Shown here: one piece after another, positions 10,518-25,347 of the stretch | Position numbering within the stretch: position 1 is the first letter of the stretch | Layout: the number at the start of each line of letters is the position of its first letter | The notes under the pieces: generated by a model | Database searches by the model: none | The model's input: the letters and a program-made list of their open reading frames with translations, nothing else | What the model was told of the DNA's origin: nothing | Source: a virus | Lineage: Duplodnaviria > Heunggongvirae > Uroviricota > Caudoviricetes | Length of the DNA: 26,984 bases | IMG/VR virus record: IMGVR_UViG_2645727948_000013 | Direction: 5' to 3' (one strand) | Made by a program: the position numbers and the translations under genes

Positions 10518-11165
10518 TCACCATTCATAGGGTAAATTAAGCGCTTTTAAACCTTGCTGGAAAGTATTAAGAGATCCGTTTTTTTGTTGTTCCATTTTTT
10601 CGCGTGCAGCTTTCTCATACTGCTCCATCCGTTGGTTATACTCTTGCAATTCCTCCGGGGAGAGGTTTCCCATTGGGGAGTTTGTACCCGGCCCCCTGGC
10701 TCGTTCTTCAAGCGTACCCTGTACGTTTTGATGGCGCATTCCTGGGGCATTTCTTATTGAGTCAATGCCATTTCTTCCAACATCTTCTTTATTAACGGCA
10801 TTGCTCGCCACCAGCACACCCCAGCTAGGGATAGCAAAATCAGGAGCGGTTTCGCATGCCTTTACCATATAATCGAAAGTGCTTCGATTGATCTCGTTTG
10901 CGTCGGGATTTAACAGGCGAGAATATTGATATTTAGCATTTTCGTTGGTTGCGACTTTATACAGTTCTTGCTGCACCATCGCTTCAGAAAGTTTAAGGCG
11001 TTTCATATCTGACAGTAACTTCTTGCGCATGGATTCGTCTTGACTGACAGCAAAGCCGTAAACGTGCCCAAGGTATTTCGTATAATCGGTACAAATCTCC
11101 TTTACGCTTGATGCTGCATTAACAGTCCCAGCCATAAATAATAACGGTAGTAATAGTTTTCTCAT
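10518..11165 (-). CDS. Sim-like periplasmic superinfection-exclusion protein precursor, 215 aa from the RBS-supported start
   Basis: The track ORF 10518..11192 has no SD at its first ATG. The internal ATG at 11165 has a GGTGAGG SD and gives MRKLLLPLLFMAGTVNA (signal peptide). The C-terminal part shares GMRxxxVQGTLEERARGxGT with the Sit-like protein. Confidence 0.6.
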   Translation of the reverse strand: MRKLLLPLLFMAGTVNAASSVKEICTDYTKYLGHVYGFAVSQDESMRKKLLSDMKRLKLSEAMVQQELYKVATNENAKYQYSRLLNPDANEINRSTFDYMVKACETAPDFAIPSWGVLVASNAVNKEDVGRNGIDSIRNAPGMRHQNVQGTLEERARGPGTNSPMGNLSPEELQEYNQRMEQYEKAAREKMEQQKNGSLNTFQQGLKALNLPYEW

Positions 11166-11260
11166 TATAACCTCACCTGCCTTATAACTCATTTAGGGTA
11201 CATATTTTCGCCTTTAAAAAAAAGAGGTTATTAGATCCAATTGTGTATTTATTAAGCATG

Positions 11261-11299: not shown

Positions 11300-11590
11300 T
11301 ATCTTTTCGCATCATATTGACCTTTTAATCGTTCAGGCTTATAGTTCCGCCGTCGTAGCAAATTCTGCGACCGGGTTTAGCAGCCTGAATACTTACGCGG
11401 ACAACCGCAGATTTCCGATATTGCGGTATTTTTGTGTCCGTAAACCACGTTACGCCCGAATTATGGTGGGGCGTGATGGGGAGGCTTCGGCCTGCTGGTT
11501 TCGTAAGTGCCAGTCTGCTAACCCCGTCACGTCCTGCCACCTGTTTAGCAGCGGGTCGCAGGTTGTTTATCAACTTACGAGGCCGTAACT
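11300..11590 (+). ncRNA. c4: immI leader region expected to encode the c4 antisense repressor RNA (exact ends not determined)
   Basis: By position between the C1 operator and icd, as in P1. The motif tttagcagc occurs twice (about 11366 and 11543). No structure-based prediction was possible by eye. Confidence 0.35.
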
Positions 11591-12938: not shown

Positions 12939-13007
12939 CGTTTTCTAAGTGCAAAGAATCACCATTTCGAGCTGGTGATTGAAGGTTGATGCAAATTTGG
13001 AGAAAAA

Positions 13008-13808
13008 ATGCAACAAACATTCAATGCGGATATGAATATATCAAACCTTCATCAAAATGTCGATCCTTCAACCACTCTGCCCGTTATTTGTGGTGTTGAA
13101 ATTACGACCGACCGCGCTGGCCGTTACAACCTTAATGCTCTACACAGAGCGAGCGGACTCGGTGCCCATAAAGCGCCAGCTCAATGGCTAAGAACGCTGT
13201 CAGCTAAACAGCTCATCGAAGAGCTTGAAAAAGAAACTATGCAGAATTGCATAGTTTCGTTCGAAGGCCGTGGCGGCGGCACTTTTGCCCATGAATTGCT
13301 CGCAGTGGAGTACGCTGGTTGGATTTCTCCCGCGTTTCGGCTGAAGGTAAACCAGACATTTATCGACTATCGAGCCGGAAGATTACAACCTGCTATTCCG
13401 CAGAGTCTCCCTGAAGCTCTCCGTTTGGCTGCCGACCTGGCAGAGCAAAAGCAACGGCTGGAACAAAAAATGCTTATGGATGCACCTAAAGTCGAATTCG
13501 CCGAACGCGTTGCTACCGCCAGCGGGGTTCTAATCGGCAACTATGCCAAAGTGCTCGGTCTGGGCCAAAACTATCTCTTCACCTGGTTGCGTGATAACGG
13601 AATTCTGATCGCAACCGGTGAACGCAGGAACGTCCCCAAACAAGAATACATATCCCGTGGGTATTTCACCCTTAAAGAAACCGTGATCGATACAAGCAAT
13701 GGAAGCAGGATTTCTTTCACGACTCGTATAACCGGCAAAGGTCAGCAGTGGCTGATGAAGCGATTGCTTGATGCTGGTGTGCTGGTACCTGTCGCGGCAA
13801 CGCGCTAA
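13008..13808 (+). CDS. kilA: KilA (KilA-N domain N-terminus, antirepressor-type C-terminal domain), 266 aa
   Basis: KilA-N-like segment (YNLNALHRASG...AQWLRT...) and a C-terminal domain paralogous to Ant. Size and position match P1 kilA. Confidence 0.8.
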   Translation: MQQTFNADMNISNLHQNVDPSTTLPVICGVEITTDRAGRYNLNALHRASGLGAHKAPAQWLRTLSAKQLIEELEKETMQNCIVSFEGRGGGTFAHELLAVEYAGWISPAFRLKVNQTFIDYRAGRLQPAIPQSLPEALRLAADLAEQKQRLEQKMLMDAPKVEFAERVATASGVLIGNYAKVLGLGQNYLFTWLRDNGILIATGERRNVPKQEYISRGYFTLKETVIDTSNGSRISFTTRITGKGQQWLMKRLLDAGVLVPVAATR

Positions 13809-13837
13809 CAGACGTAGTAAGAACCACCAGCATTGTA

Positions 13838-14683
13838 ATGCTGGCTAAAGTCACTTTCCTGAGCTGTATAACGATGAGCGATTTTACTTTTTCTGGCTAT
13901 GAATTGGCCTGCTTTGTAACACACTCCGGTCTATCCCGTAGCGCCGGGCATATCCTGTCGCAATGTGCAAATCTAGCGGCAACAACCAGTGAATACTTCA
14001 TTCACAAGCCTCACCGCCTGATCGCGGCAGAAACTGGTTATAGCCAATCAACCGTCGTTCGTGCATTCCGTGAAGCTGTAAACAAAGGAATTCTGTCTGT
14101 AGAGATTGTTATCGGCGATCACCGTGAACGTCGCGCTAACCTGTACCGGTTTACACCATCCTTTTTGGCCTTCGCACAACAAGCCAAAAATGCGCTGATT
14201 GAAAGCAAATTAAAGATCTCTTCAGCGGCAACCAAGGTTAAAGCTGTTCTCGCTAAGACATTGGCTTTATTTAATTTTTTATCCACCCCCCCATGTCAAA
14301 ATGATACCCCCTCCCCCTGTCAGGATGACGTGGCAATAAAGAATAAGAAGTCACAAGTTAAAAAAACAAAAAGATCAGTTTCCGGCGGTGCCGGAACGAC
14401 CAGACTCAAAAAATTGACTTCATGGATCGCTGAGGCAAAAGCAAAGGCTGACAATCTGCGGTTATCCAAAAAACGCGCTCAAAAACATGAGTTCAAGCAG
14501 AAAGTAGAGGCGGCAGCGCGGAAATATGCTTACCTGAAGGACAAGCGTTCTCCTGATATTGGCGGGATATCAAACTTCGATAATCTGCCGCATTGCATGA
14601 CGGTAAACGAAGCTCTTAATGCGGTTTTAGCCAAAAATAAAGATAACGAACAATGGGGTATACCGGCAGGATTCAGAGGGTGA
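13838..14683 (+). CDS. repL: RepL, lytic-replicon replication protein, 281 aa
   Basis: Follows kilA in the same operon under the Op53-like operator. HTH-like segment (ETGYSQSTVVRAFREAVNKGIL) and a basic C-terminus. Size matches P1 RepL as recalled. Confidence 0.7.
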   Translation: MLAKVTFLSCITMSDFTFSGYELACFVTHSGLSRSAGHILSQCANLAATTSEYFIHKPHRLIAAETGYSQSTVVRAFREAVNKGILSVEIVIGDHRERRANLYRFTPSFLAFAQQAKNALIESKLKISSAATKVKAVLAKTLALFNFLSTPPCQNDTPSPCQDDVAIKNKKSQVKKTKRSVSGGAGTTRLKKLTSWIAEAKAKADNLRLSKKRAQKHEFKQKVEAAARKYAYLKDKRSPDIGGISNFDNLPHCMTVNEALNAVLAKNKDNEQWGIPAGFRG

Positions 14684-14733
14684 TAGATTGCTCTAATCTG
14701 GAGTCACCTGGCGTTTTCAGTTTGAGGTCGGAG

Positions 14734-14979
14734 ATGCAATCTGATTTTTTACAGTTAGCGATCGCTTTTGCAGGATATGTTTGTATTGGCTTCTGTGTAT
14801 ACATGATCAGCCGAAAAATGCTTGTCGATATCGACCGCAAAGAACAAGCAGAGGAGATCTTAGTATGGATTTTCTTTGGCGCGGTCTGGCCATTAGGGAT
14901 CATGTTTGCTGCAACATTTCTTCTGATGTGGATATTCACCCTTCCAGGTGATTTCTATAGAAAAAAAGCCAGACATTGA
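14734..14979 (+). CDS. Small two-helix membrane protein, 81 aa from the SD-supported ATG (track ORF starts at 14653)
   Basis: GAGG SD 6 nt before the ATG at 14734. Two hydrophobic helices (LAIAFAGYVCIGFCVYMI and ILVWIFFGAVWPLGIMFAATFLLMWIF). The longer form would overlap the repL 3' end. Confidence 0.45.
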   Translation: MQSDFLQLAIAFAGYVCIGFCVYMISRKMLVDIDRKEQAEEILVWIFFGAVWPLGIMFAATFLLMWIFTLPGDFYRKKARH

Positions 14980-15003
14980 TACAATCGTTGCGGGTGCTTG
15001 AGG

Positions 15004-15038
15004 CTATCTGCTTCAGGCATTACCCGAAAAGCAGATAG
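15004..15038 (+). other. 10-bp perfect inverted repeat (ctatctgctt / aagcagatag, 15-nt loop)
   Basis: Read directly. It lies between the small membrane gene and the mok/hok locus and could be a terminator-like or 5' mRNA structure. Confidence 0.4.
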
Positions 15039-15102
15039 AAGAAAGCCCCAGATAACATTACGCGTCCTGCAAGACGCTTAACATTAATCTGAGGCCATAT
15101 CT

Positions 15103-15309
15103 ATGCTTAGCATACGTAGATTAGCCTCTTACCGACCAAAAGGTCAAGGAGAAGCAGGCTATGAAGCAGCAAAAAGCGATGTTAATCGCTCTGATCGTCA
15201 TCTGTTTAACCGTCATTGTGACGGCACTGGTAACGAGGAAAGACCTCTGCGAGGTACGAATCCGAACCGGCCAGACGGAGGTCACTGTCTTCACAGCCTA
15301 CGAATCTGA
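15103..15309 (+). CDS. mok: mok-like overlapping reading frame (modulator of hok translation), 68 aa
   Basis: ATG-initiated ORF that starts 58 nt upstream of hok, in a different frame, and ends 7 nt before the hok stop, as in hok/mok/sok loci. Confidence 0.45.
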   Translation: MLSIRRLASYRPKGQGEAGYEAAKSDVNRSDRHLFNRHCDGTGNEERPLRGTNPNRPDGGHCLHSLRI

Positions 15310-15316
15310 AAGGTAA
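15161..15316 (+). CDS. hok: Hok/Gef-family type I toxin, 51 aa
   Basis: Translation MKQQKAMLIALIVICLTVIVTALVTRKDLCEVRIRTGQTEVTVFTAYESER is near-identical in pattern to E. coli HokC/Gef as recalled. AAGGAG SD upstream. Confidence 0.85.
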   Translation: MKQQKAMLIALIVICLTVIVTALVTRKDLCEVRIRTGQTEVTVFTAYESER

Positions 15317-15390
15317 GAGACCTGGCGGGGAGAGATCCTCGCCACTCTTCGTGTGTCAGGTATCCTCAATGCACCCTTTCCTCTCCAAAT

Positions 15391-15415
15391 AAAAAAGCTC
15401 CCGAAGGAGCTTTAA
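15391..15415. terminator. Bidirectional intrinsic terminator between hok (+) and the structural operon (-)
   Basis: Stem aaagctcc / ggagcttt with a cgaa loop. On the minus strand it is followed by TTTTTTATTT. Confidence 0.65.
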
Positions 15416-15432
15416 AATACAAGGGATGACTC

Positions 15433-15942
15433 TTAATCCCACTCAATCCAGTTGTAGACGATACGAAGTGACGGGCGCACAGCGGCAGTCACATCTTCGG
15501 TACTAAAGTCGATTGCATCACTGTAGATTTTGCAGTCCAACATTTCAATTGTTGTAGCAGCTTTTGTCACAGCGTTAACCCCGGAAGATTTGGATTCAGG
15601 GGTAGCAGCCATCGTGATATCAACATAGTCCTTCGCCGCAATGCGATCCTTGATGAACTGAAGAATATCGCCTTCGATAGTCTCCACGCACTGGACCTGG
15701 ATTTCCCCAGAGTTTCGAATTGGTCCGTGCTGGTTGAACTTCACACCATTCGGACCATAGTCCTCCACATCCTCGCGGGTCATTTCAGGAATTTGCGACG
15801 TGCGAACCAGTACGCTGATATCTTCATGGCCTGCAAAAGTGAGCTGGAATTCAGAAGATACCAGTCGTTCGCCTTTGGCCGCGTTGGCAGTATAGCGGCC
15901 CTTAATAAATTTACGGTTTCCCTTAGTGTTATTGTGCCCCAT
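15433..15942 (-). CDS. Tail tube protein (T4 gp19-like), 169 aa
   Basis: Size and C-terminal ...VYNWIEWD resemble myovirus tube proteins. AAAAGGA RBS. Confidence 0.6.
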   Translation of the reverse strand: MGHNNTKGNRKFIKGRYTANAAKGERLVSSEFQLTFAGHEDISVLVRTSQIPEMTREDVEDYGPNGVKFNQHGPIRNSGEIQVQCVETIEGDILQFIKDRIAAKDYVDITMAATPESKSSGVNAVTKAATTIEMLDCKIYSDAIDFSTEDVTAAVRPSLRIVYNWIEWD

Positions 15943-15953
15943 ATAAAATCCTT

Positions 15954-16535
15954 TTACTGGAACGCCCGAACAATATCGGAGCTGTTATATATCGAAGAAC
16001 CGGTCAACTGGAGGTTGACGGTGTTTTTCAGGAAATGCCCATTGCTGTCCCTGGGCGCATCGAGATCGAAACTTATGTCCTGGATAGCGACATCAATGAT
16101 GTTGATCCGGCGACCAATGTTTAGCGTCACGCGCTCCGGGATTCGACCACCAATACTGGCATCTTTAAGTTCCGGGCTAATCATCGCTGACAATGCGGCG
16201 ATAGCTCCTGAAACCTCCGTGAATGGGTCAAACAAAGCGATGAAAGTTACTGGCAGCGTGAAAGTCGGCGGTGTTCCCCCTTCCCAAACCATTAAGCTGT
16301 TCCAACGGGCAACCGACGTTGTTTCAGTACCAACCTGCGCAAAACCACTGAAGGCACCAGCAACAGATCCCATGGACATACCGGTAAACGGCGCTTCCCA
16401 ATTCTGGGCCATGTTCATTGCCGCCCCCTGGCTGATATATCCGGTAACCTGGTACTGAGAGTTCGTTAAAGTAACTTTCAGAAATGGCGATACACCGTCA
16501 GCCTGGCTGTAAACCCCATAAGGAATAGGTGCCAT
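15954..16535 (-). CDS. Tail structural protein, 193 aa
   Basis: ATG at 16535. Its AGGAGGA SD lies 28 nt upstream, separated from the ATG by a hairpin. Confidence 0.6.
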   Translation of the reverse strand: MAPIPYGVYSQADGVSPFLKVTLTNSQYQVTGYISQGAAMNMAQNWEAPFTGMSMGSVAGAFSGFAQVGTETTSVARWNSLMVWEGGTPPTFTLPVTFIALFDPFTEVSGAIAALSAMISPELKDASIGGRIPERVTLNIGRRINIIDVAIQDISFDLDAPRDSNGHFLKNTVNLQLTGSSIYNSSDIVRAFQ

Positions 16536-16545
16536 TCAAGTTAAA

Positions 16546-16563
16546 GGCCGGAGTTCTCCGGCC
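16546..16563 (-). promoter_or_regulatory. Hairpin between the SD and start codon of the 193-aa gene (split RBS)
   Basis: ggccggag / ctccggcc inverted repeat sits between AGGAGGA (16564..16570) and the ATG (16535). Folding would bring the SD to normal spacing. Confidence 0.4.
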
Positions 16564-16570
16564 TCCTCCT

Positions 16571-17386
16571 TTAGCCAAGGCGCTTACGGCGCAGTTTCAT
16601 TGACTTTTTGCGGGCAAGTTTTGCCGCGCCGGTCTGGGCTTTTCGACGCGCTTTTTTCAGCGCCGATTTTTGAGCCGCAGTCAGACGTTTTTTACGCAGG
16701 CGTTTACGGATGAGTTTGATCTCACCGTTACGAACAACCTTCTTAAATGCTTCAGTCAGCATTTCATCAGAAGTGCCAGCAACAACAAACGCCGCTTCCA
16801 GTTCGTCGCGGTCGTCGCTATCTAAACCAGCGATAGAGGCACCAACATCAGCAGCTGCGTCGTCGTCTTCATCGTCAGCCAGTGCTTCGATCAGGTCATC
16901 ATCTACACCGCATGCTGCGAGGAAGTCAGCAACATTTGCCCATGCTTCGTTATAGGCATCGTCCTGTTCTTCTGTAACTTCGGAGTCGTCGTCATCAGAG
17001 ATACCAGCGATAGCCTGAACGAAACCATCAAGGGAGTCGAAAGTCAGATCACCGCTATCAGCCCAGGCGAAAACGGCGTCGGCCGCATCACTCAACGCAT
17101 TTTGCATAGCACTTCGATTTGCAGCTTCCAGAATCATCTGGTGCGCCTGTTCGACGGTCCATTCTTTACCGTCTTTCCCTTCCAGGATTTGCTCAGGAGC
17201 CTGGGCAGATGGAACGTTATCGTTAGTCTGTGCCGCCGGTTCCGGATTATTATTAATAACCGGATCTGTTGGCGGTTCGGCGCTTGCTCGGGCAGACTCC
17301 ATCAGCTGCACAGGATCAGAGTTCAAAGCGAAACGAGACAGTCCATTCCCCAAAAATGCCCCGGATTGAAAAAAGTTTTTGCTCAT
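16571..17386 (-). CDS. Acidic, probably disordered virion/morphogenetic protein with a poly-basic C-terminal tail, 271 aa
   Basis: AAGGGAA RBS. Asp/Glu-rich runs (DDDDSEVTEEQDD, ADDEDDDAAADV) and a C-terminus RKRLRKKRLTAAQKSALKKARRKAQTGAAKLARKKSMKLRRKRLG. Confidence 0.65.
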   Translation of the reverse strand: MSKNFFQSGAFLGNGLSRFALNSDPVQLMESARASAEPPTDPVINNNPEPAAQTNDNVPSAQAPEQILEGKDGKEWTVEQAHQMILEAANRSAMQNALSDAADAVFAWADSGDLTFDSLDGFVQAIAGISDDDDSEVTEEQDDAYNEAWANVADFLAACGVDDDLIEALADDEDDDAAADVGASIAGLDSDDRDELEAAFVVAGTSDEMLTEAFKKVVRNGEIKLIRKRLRKKRLTAAQKSALKKARRKAQTGAAKLARKKSMKLRRKRLG

Positions 17387-23360: not shown

Positions 23361-24170
23361 TTATTTGCTAAGAGCAGCGAATAATCGTTCGAAATCGATA
23401 GTATCTATAGCACGCGTAAGCGCCGGAAGTTCAGCCTCAAAGTACCCGTGTCGATCGTAAAAGAAGGGACCGAAGAGCGAGGCATGTTGGATTCTACTTC
23501 GCCCCAGCCCGGACACACAGTTAAGCCCATTACCGGCTAAAAGGCTAAAAAACTTCTCTGGATTATCGTGGTAAAGCTGGGAATCAATGGTGGCAGTTAA
23601 CTCTTCCATAGGGAAGCACACCCGCCTTGTCTCCCAGGAATATTTAGTCCGAAGCATAAACATTGCTTTCAGCAATTCACATTGAGCGCGGATCGCGTCC
23701 GGTTCATAGCCAGATATGGAGACATAAGCCACGTCCCTCATTCCTGCGTCATCTTTGAAAGTCACGATAGAAGTAACATCCAGCTCTTTTTCGAAAGAGC
23801 GGGCAGCATCTACTGGACGCTGAAGTAAATCATTCGACTTAATGCGCTCGAGAATCCCTCCCCACATATCATTTAGATATTCGATATGAGCCAAAACCTT
23901 ATCAAGACACTCTCGTGTAAACCATTCAGTATGCCCGCCACCAGCGCTTTTCTCCCACGGCGCATTCCAGGGGAAAAAGGTTGCGTGTAAAGCCCGCTCA
24001 AGATTAACTATTGCCAAACGCGTACCACGATAGACCCGTGAAAGCGCAAAATCGGGACTCACTTGTAGCCCTTTAAACCGTGCCAATGGACCACATGAAA
24101 TGCCGATTTTAAAAGTATCTCCATTCTCCGGCACCAGAACGTAGAGGTAGTGTTGTTTCTCTTCTTGCAT
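23361..24170 (-). CDS. T5orf172 (GIY-YIG-like) domain protein with an uncharacterised C-terminal domain, 269 aa
   Basis: N-terminus HYLYVLVPENGDTFKIGIS...R...LERALHATF...GGHTEWF fits the T5orf172/MUG113 pattern (YxYxL..KIG..R..E..LH..F..G..EWF). Weak SD. Has its own terminator. Confidence 0.7.
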   Translation of the reverse strand: MQEEKQHYLYVLVPENGDTFKIGISCGPLARFKGLQVSPDFALSRVYRGTRLAIVNLERALHATFFPWNAPWEKSAGGGHTEWFTRECLDKVLAHIEYLNDMWGGILERIKSNDLLQRPVDAARSFEKELDVTSIVTFKDDAGMRDVAYVSISGYEPDAIRAQCELLKAMFMLRTKYSWETRRVCFPMEELTATIDSQLYHDNPEKFFSLLAGNGLNCVSGLGRSRIQHASLFGPFFYDRHGYFEAELPALTRAIDTIDFERLFAALSK

Positions 24171-24462: not shown

Positions 24463-25347
24463 TTATGGATTGCGCTTATGGATCTGGAAGCCGATTTTCC
24501 TGCCGTTTTTTATTTCTGAAAATTTAAGATATTCAATAGCTTCCAAATCTTTCATGGCTTTTCTGATAACGCTATTTTGCACGCTAACGGATGATTTGAG
24601 ATTAAGCCTTGCTCTAAGGCGCTCAATGCTGACAGGTGCCGGGTTGGCGGGTAGAGCCTCAAAGAATGTATACAGTACCTTGGCCGTCTCTTTGCGCCCG
24701 AGCTTATCCAGCATCTTCAGCTTCAGGATTCGCTTATAGTCAACATAGTAAAGTTCAGATAGCTGTTTCTGCGGCTGGATCTCGATAACATCAAGCTCGG
24801 TATTCAGGCTGCTATATGCCAACAAGTTGACGTTAATGTTATTGAGATGACCTTTTGCCGCCGGGAAGCGGAATTTGACAACTGTCTGCTGAATGCGTGT
24901 CAGAGAGTCATCAATACTTTTACGGAACGCCTTTGAAAGGCGCTTACGTGGATAGCCGCATCGATCGGCAAACTCGGAGAATGGCAGGGTGATTATGCCG
25001 TCATCATCAGGTGCGTAGTCAAACAACGCGGAGGTTATGCCCACCCACACCTTAAAATCAGTATCCATATCCAGGCGTGGGCCATGAATTTCAATTCCCT
25101 CATAGCCTTCCTGCTCAACAATTTTAAGGCTTGATAGTTCTTCGGTTGCGTTCGTTGTGTTTGTAGTAACTGACGATCCGCGACGTAGTGCCACATTGGT
25201 AGATTTTAAGGTTGGCACAAACACACCTAAGCGCAACAAAGCGATAGGTTGTATAGTGCTGTTGTTATTGGGCTTCAGGCTGTGGATTTCTCCTGTATTT
25301 CCTGCAACTTCTTCAACGCTAAGGAAGCCTTTACTTTCTTCCGGCAT
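24463..25347 (-). CDS. repA: Plasmid replication initiator RepA (iteron-binding, P1 RepA family), 294 aa
   Basis: Flanked by a 5-iteron origin upstream and a 9-iteron array downstream. GGAGAAA RBS. Segments (LRLGVFVP, GPRLDMDTDFK.W.G) resemble P1 RepA as recalled, but overall the protein looks divergent. Confidence 0.8.
   Translation of the reverse strand: MPEESKGFLSVEEVAGNTGEIHSLKPNNNSTIQPIALLRLGVFVPTLKSTNVALRRGSSVTTNTTNATEELSSLKIVEQEGYEGIEIHGPRLDMDTDFKVWVGITSALFDYAPDDDGIITLPFSEFADRCGYPRKRLSKAFRKSIDDSLTRIQQTVVKFRFPAAKGHLNNINVNLLAYSSLNTELDVIEIQPQKQLSELYYVDYKRILKLKMLDKLGRKETAKVLYTFFEALPANPAPVSIERLRARLNLKSSVSVQNSVIRKAMKDLEAIEYLKFSEIKNGRKIGFQIHKRNP

Follow-up and report, generated by a model that had tools for sequence, protein, structure and literature searches.

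The stretch of DNA analysed here, which we call the window, is 26,984 nucleotides long, and its gene content, read along the stretch, is that of a P1-like plasmid prophage. The genes come in the following order: a group of tail-fibre, baseplate and sit genes, then c4-icd-ant, kilA and repL, then bplB, pmgG, 21, 22, 23, parB and parA, and finally the plasmid replicon. We are concerned with the interval between repL (13838..14683) and bplB (15433..15942, minus strand), where three open reading frames are found: one of 81 amino acids (14734..14979), one of 51 (15161..15316) and an overlapping frame of 68 (15103..15309). The last two are the coding part of a hok locus, which an earlier examination of the letters alone, the sequence-only reading, had placed between the kilA-repL lytic replicon and the tail operon. 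The position is confirmed, the neighbours being repL on the left and bplB on the right. The locus lies immediately 3' of the C1-repressed kilA-repL operon, in the same orientation, and is separated from it by a single weak terminator-like hairpin at 14936-14951.

The first of the three frames, orf81, is on the plus strand and codes for a small hydrophobic protein. It matches phrog_3772, a PHROG to which no function is attached, over its full length (E 3e-54), and a Pfam profile search returns no match for it. PGAP calls this frame in NZ_CP037905.1 as well, at the corresponding position, and P1-like phages are the only phage records in which it occurs, the allele of SJ46 being 44% identical. 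The -35 of the hok promoter falls within the 3' end of orf81.

The 51-residue protein, encoded on the plus strand at 15161..15316 with a GGAG 8 nt before its ATG, had been assigned to the Hok/Gef family of toxins, and profile comparisons leave the assignment standing: it matches Pfam PF01848 (HOK_GEF) over profile positions 1-42 of 42, with an E-value of 2.4e-22 and 78.7 bits for a cut-off of 22, and PHROG 251, 'MokW-like host killing', with an E-value of 4.9e-32. The mok frame, 15103..15309 on the same strand, overlaps hok in the +1 frame and is preceded by a GAGG at 15091-15094; residues 11-48 of its 68 match phrog_37205 (E 8.3e-21). Its ATG, at 15103, lies 58 nt 5' of the hok ATG and is out of frame with hok. 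Both the frame and the distance had been reported correctly by the sequence-only reading, but its remark that this is exactly the arrangement of hok/sok systems does not hold generally: of 34 relatives, 22, hokW among them, have their mok ATG 57 nt before that of hok and in the hok frame, and so has an IncFII locus with a Hok identical to the R1 Hok query sequence. A distance of 58 nt for R1 itself is set aside in view of that IncFII locus. Since mok is in frame with hok in the 22 relatives, their Mok is an N-terminally extended Hok. Here mok is out of frame, and the coupling must therefore work as has been proposed for out-of-frame mok; control of hok translation through mok is a feature of the family, and would operate in this locus too.

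Upstream of these frames, a promoter scan finds the hok promoter at 14958..14985 on the plus strand, with a -35 TAGAAA, a spacer of 16 nt and a TG-extended -10 TACAAT. Most relatives have a -10-like hexamer (TACAAT, TAGAAT, TATAAT or TATATT) at the same distance 5' of a conserved GGGYGCTTGAG. From the extended -10 we infer a transcript start at 14992, the first base of the conserved GGGUGCUUGAGG. The core of the hok mRNA, taken from this putative 5' end to the end of the fold-back inhibition (fbi) box, is 14992..15376 on the plus strand, and is the unit that the locus has in common with the hok loci of lambdoid prophages. Its leader matches the Rfam family RF01794 over 14992..15166, plus strand, from model positions 1 to 157, with a score of 114.9 bits for a gathering threshold of 59 (E 8.5e-26).

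For 14992..15376, the minimum free energy (MFE) of the predicted fold is -153.5 kcal/mol, with a z-score of -7.87. In the MFE structure, the tac-like 5' end (14992..15003, plus strand, GGGUGCUUGAGG) forms 12 pairs with the fbi box at the 3' end (15364..15376, plus strand, CCUCAAUGCACCC), and the region of the mok start is paired with 15347-15363. The energy of the tac/fbi duplex, -19.8 kcal/mol, ranks first among all windows. When 36 nt are taken off the 3' end in silico, the 5' end refolds as a local hairpin. As far as computed folds go, the MFE structure together with the refolding of the shortened RNA agrees with the tac/fbi scheme known for hok mRNAs.

Is this fold conserved? A scan of contigs, with one genome per species, gave 47 related loci, from Escherichia, Shigella, Kluyvera, Citrobacter, Photorhabdus, Pantoea and Erwinia, and the alignment was built on the 34 non-identical full-length units, namely 33 fetched loci and the window's own. 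RNAalifold recovers from these 34 units the helix that closes the 5' end on the 3' end, the hairpins of the leader and a hairpin after the stop codon. The consensus structure has 71 pairs, and 97.5% of its cells are paired, versus 39-45% when the partners are slid by 1-3 columns; the structure being derived from the same 34 sequences, this comparison favours it somewhat. Compensatory changes are independent of that bias: 16 pairs are changed on both sides, and no shuffle reaches the observed covariation score. The tac/fbi helix itself has one variable pair (alignment column 4:402), which is U-A in 20 of the 34 units, C-G in 11, U-G in 2 and something else in 1. When the best duplex partner is sought for the first 14 nt of each unit, the 3'-terminal window comes first in 31 of the 34 and fourth in the other 3. 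The fold-back elements tac and fbi, which the sequence-only reading had proposed to look for, are both there, with their 12-pair helix in the MFE and the switch between U-A and C-G among relatives.

The antisense partner is on the opposite strand. By homology to the annotation of sokW in phage 933W, which fixes both ends, the putative Sok RNA is 71 nt long and runs on the minus strand from 15111 down to 15041 (15041..15111). It is predicted to fold into a single-stranded 5' leader of 15 nt, a long hairpin and a tail GGGGCUUUC, with an energy of -29.1 kcal/mol and a z-score of -4.78. The leader is complementary to the mok AUG and to the first mok codons, and the hairpin corresponds to helix 3 of the consensus structure, in which 5 of 10 pairs have compensatory changes among relatives.

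A candidate Sok promoter lies at 15118..15147 on the minus strand, with a -35 TTGACC (15147 down to 15142), an 18-nt spacer and a -10 TAATCT (15123 down to 15118). The -10 hexamer is aligned with TAACCT of sokW and, in the alignment of 34 units, relatives keep TAnnnT at this position. The hexamer of sokW has been put to a functional test: in a promoter-less sokW, made with primers YO-421/422 that change TAACCT, protection against HokW is lost (PMC8621323). A generic promoter scan does not call the Sok promoter of the window, because only 8 of 12 consensus positions match, and we retain it as a candidate because of its homology to sokW. The 18-nt spacer and the out-of-frame position of mok, 58 nt upstream, have one and the same origin, a single extra T (GGTCAAGG versus GGCAAGG). 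Taken on their own, the 8 matching positions and the 18-nt spacer are points against a functional module.

The evidence from Rfam has to be read with care. The consensus of RF01794, although the family is named 'sok', ends in the hok Shine-Dalgarno sequence and AUG, and its match has the orientation of the hok mRNA. The same holds for 933W, whose sokW annotation is on the other strand, and for the IncFII locus. RF01794 is a model of the sense leader; its match therefore validates the hok leader and not, directly, Sok, which is the complement of part of the matched segment. Detection of Sok on the minus strand by a covariance model, as the sequence-only reading had suggested, was abandoned, the match being on the plus strand in the window, in 933W and in the IncFII locus. 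What can be placed on the minus strand, by homology to sokW, is the promoter and the 71-nt hairpin RNA. A promoter, complementarity to the mok start, and a leader followed by a hairpin are all found at the level of the letters, and they point to a Sok antisense gene.

We now compare the locus with the corresponding region of reference P1. A blastn search against NC_005856 finds homology at 13000-14697 and 15391-17000 only: the segment 14698..15390 has no homology to NC_005856, and the P1 order rlfA-rlfB-pmgF between repL and bplB is not encountered in it. Thus 693 bp, containing orf81 and hok/mok/sok, stand in place of the 1826 bp that carry rlfA, rlfB and pmgF in reference P1, a DUF3800 protein being among the products. 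The two contents are unrelated and the flanks are the same: repL and the first 11 bp of Orlf on the left, the hairpin next to bplB on the right. On the left, the window parts from P1 within the annotated C1 operator Orlf/Op55, with ATTGCTCTAAT left in place; the right junction is directly 5' of the hairpin. The sequence-only reading was right that reference P1 has no hok locus at this position.

Within the segment, homology to hokW of 933W spans 14980..15376, from the -10 to fbi, at 86.5% identity. Since the lambdoid homology has exactly these limits, what was inserted is the hok transcript as such, with orf81 as a distinct piece. On the other side, the GC-rich hairpin at 15394..15413 (AAAGCUCCCGAAGGAGCUUU / AAAGCTCCCGAAGGAGCTTT), downstream of bplB, belongs to the P1 backbone, since homology to reference P1 resumes at 15391; it is identical in reference P1, where it lies between bplB and pmgF. 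It had been described as a bidirectional terminator common to hok and the tail operon. It does adjoin hok, but it is a backbone element and is scored as a terminator on the minus strand only: in the hok direction the stem is followed by no more than three T. The hairpin also forms in the MFE structure of the RNA 14992-15416, and it is likely to be the 3' boundary of hok transcripts, although the exact 3' end is uncertain because the native sequence is replaced, 14 nt after fbi, by this backbone hairpin with its three U.

Among characterised systems, the closest is hokW-sokW of the Stx2 prophage Sp5 and phage 933W. Both toxins have 51 amino acids, of which 47 are identical (92%), and over the first 41 codons the coding sequences differ mostly by synonymous changes, the four amino-acid changes being at the C-terminus. 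In the RNA unit, tac and fbi differ by no more than the bulged base, the Sok region is homologous and its -10 is at the same position; both carriers are temperate phages. The differences are these: the mok start is 58 nt from that of hok and out of frame here, against 57 nt and in frame in hokW; the Sok spacer is 18 nt here and 17 nt in sokW; the -35 and the upstream promoter DNA are not the same; the 3' flank is here the P1 backbone hairpin; and the carrier is a plasmid prophage, whereas that of hokW is an integrated lambdoid prophage. HokW is toxic and is neutralised by sokW (PMC8621323).

The hok/sok system of plasmid R1 (parB), and the IncFII locus, have the same parts in the same order: a 5' GGNGCUUGAGGCU, the mok start in a hairpin, hok, a 3' fbi and a Sok antisense to the mok start. 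RF01794 matches the IncFII locus with 87.2 bits and the window with 114.9 bits, and both are carried by low-copy plasmids. In the window, the leader is longer by 16-18 nt, which extend the Sok hairpin, and the transcript borrows the backbone hairpin where R1-type loci have a terminator hairpin of their own after fbi. HokW and R1 Hok are 44% identical (PMC8621323), and the identity between the window's Hok and R1 Hok is only moderate.

In Escherichia and Shigella, the hok loci of chromosomes and prophages, of the hokD/relF and hokC/gef types, have toxins 80-96% identical to that of the window, with the same leader and fbi. Several of the chromosomal copies sampled (L012, L013, L017, L028 and L040) are without the 5' leader or the fbi box, whereas the copy in the window is complete. 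hokD of K-12 is not known to have a mok or a sok; the name hokD that PGAP gives to the window's type of toxin therefore reflects protein similarity, not the architecture of the locus.

How frequent is this version of the slot between repL and bplB? In PLSDB, the allele of the window, orf81 followed by a complete hok/mok/sok, is present in at least 262 records (at least 80% covered, identity at least 99%, and mostly 99.9%); the P1/P7 allele, rlfA-rlfB-pmgF, in 99; and a third allele, that of RCS47 and SJ46, in 125, about a quarter of PLSDB P1-like plasmids. The complete hok allele is the commonest version of the slot in wild P1-like plasmids. It is also found in the phage records MH422554, where it is annotated MokW, MH445380/1, phi456 and Ro157c2YLVW, and PGAP names the hok frame hokD in hundreds of plasmids. 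Acquired cargo, as the sequence-only reading suggested for the locus, is apt in that reference P1 lacks it, but misleading if it suggests rarity or novelty. Conversely, the possibility that it would turn out to be a conserved and already annotated feature of the P1 backbone is realised in this sense: the locus is widespread and already annotated, though absent from the reference.

The third allele deserves a description of its own. Its homology to the window runs through the hok promoter and the leader up to 15123, after which comes a minus-strand open reading frame of about 200 amino acids; because this frame replaces the sequence past 15123, hok is gone and the Sok region is left. The Sok-like RNA is identical in RCS47 and SJ46, and differs from that of the window at 10 of 71 positions, with the same fold and with TAATCT kept. 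This Sok-like gene has an intact -10 and a replacement -35, and its 5' recognition leader is identical to that of the window's Sok at 14 of 15 positions.

Assembling the toxin family, the mok frame, the leader, tac and fbi, and the Sok promoter and hairpin, the claim that a type I toxin locus, hok/mok plus an antisense regulator, lies beside the lytic replicon is upheld, and these elements make it quite probable that the locus is an intact and functional hok/mok/sok toxin-antitoxin module on a P1-like plasmid prophage. Three steps are known traits of the family: 3' processing of the hok mRNA, its refolding, and cleavage of the Sok-hok duplex by RNase III. The mechanism that we propose takes its steps from the family and from hokW-sokW, and its elements from what is observed in the window. 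The extended -10 promoter would constitutively produce, from 14992, a hok mRNA of about 385-425 nt. In the full-length mRNA, the 5' end would be paired with fbi, and the region of the mok start with a 3' segment, making the molecule stable, untranslated and closed to Sok. Slow trimming at the 3' end would remove fbi and let the 5' end refold into its own hairpin, thereby opening the ribosome site of mok.

In cells that hold the plasmid, Sok, 71 nt long and short-lived, would be made continuously and would pair, by its 5' leader, across the mok start; the pairing would block the translation of mok, and hence of hok, and the duplex would be destroyed. Should the supply of Sok stop, be it by loss of the plasmid when the cell divides or by transcriptional shut-off, the stored hok mRNA would be translated, and the 51-residue Hok would insert in the inner membrane, depolarise it and kill the cell. 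For a prophage kept as a low-copy plasmid, what would follow most directly is the killing of plasmid-free segregants. It is natural to conjecture that, if the module is functional, post-segregational killing is most likely its leading role. A close relative plasmid has phd/doc together with a type III restriction-modification system, and hok would therefore be an additional layer of addiction rather than a replacement; the idea that hok replaces phd/doc is ruled out, as the close relative has both. The presence of other addiction systems on the plasmid does weaken any argument from the selective value of a further killing module.

Another role has been studied in the nearest relative. The module might mainly help lysis: on induction Sok would be lost, Hok would damage the inner membrane ahead of holin and endolysin, and earlier lysis would release more virions. 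In Sp5, the sokW RNA vanishes after mitomycin C, HokW comes about 1 h before endolysin R, and deletion of the hokW-sokW locus halves the number of released phages (Takada et al. 2021, PMC8621323). The 92% identity between the toxins and the 86.5% identity between the RNA units are in favour of extending these results to the window, and so is the position of the locus: since hok lies just 3' of the C1-repressed kilA-repL operon, co-oriented with it and with a weak hairpin between, induced read-through could run against the Sok promoter. However, the effect in Sp5 is only two-fold, and P1-like phages with the rlfA-rlfB-pmgF allele, laboratory P1 included, lyse normally without hok; any role in lysis must therefore be auxiliary. 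We consider it possible, but on the less probable side, that lysis help is the main role. It is compatible with post-segregational killing, the two not being mutually exclusive. That hokW-sokW, the nearest relative studied, serves phage release is, for its part, a point against a role in maintenance.

A third use of the same mechanism, which fits any event that stops the transcription of Sok, would be phage exclusion: an invader shuts transcription off, Sok disappears, and Hok kills the cell before the cycle of the invader is completed, a form of abortive infection. As quoted in PMC8621323, R1 hok/sok on a high-copy plasmid lowers the plating efficiency of T4 by 42% and the plaque size by about 85%; as quoted there, this is a modest effect obtained with a multicopy clone, and in the window no defence-specific feature sets the locus apart. 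We find it quite unlikely that exclusion is the main role. There is, finally, the question of whether the locus does anything at all, since the variable repL-bplB slot could harbour an inert, decaying hok remnant that hitch-hikes there. RCS47 and SJ46 do hold a truly decayed version in the same slot, with the hok frame deleted, and the hok unit of the window has another 3' flank in place of its native one. But the promoter, tac, fbi, mok, hok with its Shine-Dalgarno sequence, and the Sok promoter and hairpin are all intact, and the hok differences from hokW over the first 41 codons are of the mostly synonymous kind already described. The sequence-only reading had taken the lack of an antisense promoter or RNA, and of a conserved mRNA fold, as the mark of such a remnant; instead, the Sok promoter and hairpin could be placed and the fold is conserved in 34 units. 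With all the defining elements intact, we reject decay, which strikes us as very improbable. Of a functional module, then, post-segregational killing remains for us the most likely leading role.

The locus is common, ordinary and already partly annotated, and it leaves unchanged what is known of how hok/sok works. Its interest lies elsewhere. At this position, laboratory P1 is a poor guide to wild P1-like phage-plasmids, most of which carry a complete hok/mok/sok or a remnant of it. The current annotation of P1-like plasmids gives the toxin frame only (hokD), and omits mok, Sok and the RNA elements. A full-text search of the literature found no paper describing hok at this position of P1, the papers on P1-like plasmids mentioning hok on other plasmids. 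If functional, the module would be a third maintenance or killing system on elements that spread resistance genes, and a plasmid prophage may offer a setting in which the two roles proposed for phage-borne hok, post-segregational killing and lysis help, can be separated.

The existence of alleles with an orphan Sok suggests a last and more speculative conjecture, which we think rather unlikely: that the repL-bplB slot is an arena for toxin-antitoxin competition, in which the orphan Sok of hok-less alleles serves as an anti-addiction device against a hok-bearing competitor, and, separately, that the position after repL couples the release of Hok to induction. Were this the case, the orphan Sok would neutralise hok mRNA made by a rival P1-like plasmid that carries hok, and read-through against the Sok promoter would supply the trigger that is missing for the loss of Sok in Sp5.

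The P1-like phages RCS47 and SJ46 carry an allele of the locus from which the toxin has disappeared. This hok-less allele, found at positions 3523-3782 of the fetched RCS47 locus and 2635-2887 of the SJ46 locus, corresponds to window positions 14864-15123: the hok promoter, the leader and the entire Sok region are retained, while mok from codon 7 onward, and all beyond it, is gone. In both phages a minus-strand ORF of roughly 200 amino acids, which has no Pfam match, takes the place of the lost mok/hok part. The hok -10 box is spoiled in RCS47, where it reads TACACC. The allele is present in 125 PLSDB plasmids.

The Sok-like RNAs of RCS47 and SJ46 are identical at 70 of 70 positions and differ from the window Sok at 10 of 71. 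Despite these differences the folds are alike, at -28.8 kcal/mol for the RNA of the two phages and -29.1 kcal/mol for that of the window. The promoter of the Sok-like gene keeps its -10 box, TAATCT, and has a new -35-like motif, TTGCTC, at 18 nt. The Sok-like RNA of RCS47 and SJ46 may be an orphan antitoxin.

On its left side the allele swap breaks within the 17-bp C1 operator that is annotated in P1 as Orlf/Op55 (window positions 14687-14703): the window keeps the initial 11 bp (ATTGCTCTAAT), and the final 6 bp differ from P1. Next comes orf81 (14734-14979, +), which encodes a small hydrophobic protein of PHROG 3772, a group of unknown function, and has no Pfam match; its 3' end contains the -35 box of the hok promoter. 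Among phage records orf81 is restricted to P1-like phages, every time immediately 3' of repL. The SJ46 allele is 44% identical, and that of RCS47 is broken by an IS605-family element.

The Rfam family RF01794, named 'sok antitoxin', models the sense strand: what it describes is not the antisense RNA but the leader of the hok mRNA, as far as the AUG of hok. The family matches the window at 14992-15166 (+), the 933W locus at 1504-1678 (+) and the IncFII locus at 232-403 (+); in 933W the annotated sokW lies inside the match, on the opposite strand. Strand calls based on RF01794 can mislead annotation.

Several chromosomal hok copies, from E. coli, Kluyvera and Photorhabdus (L012, L013, L017, L028, L040 and L043), keep the toxin ORF and have lost either the fbi box or the conserved start of the 5' leader; they look like inactivated or rearranged loci.

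The window departs from reference P1 elsewhere too. Its plasmid replicon (23292-25553) is different, with incA and repA swapped out for a Rep3-type initiator (24463-25347, -; Pfam Rep3_N, slightly below cut-off, and Rep3_C) and an ORF with a T5orf172 domain (23361-24170, -), which in a relative is named GIY-YIG nuclease by PGAP; the parA and parB genes are both conserved. The superimmunity (simB/simC) region is swapped for unrelated sequence (9984-11025) with two minus-strand ORFs: one (9990-10466, -) has no Pfam match, the other (10518-11192, -) matches PTPlike_phytase only marginally, at 27.1 bits against a cut-off of 27. Two RNA features of the P1 immunity region are present just as in P1, at 11339-11391 and 11459-11544 (+): the C4 antisense RNA (Rfam RF01695, 70.8 bits) and the a1/b1 sites that it targets (RF03163, 56.2 bits).
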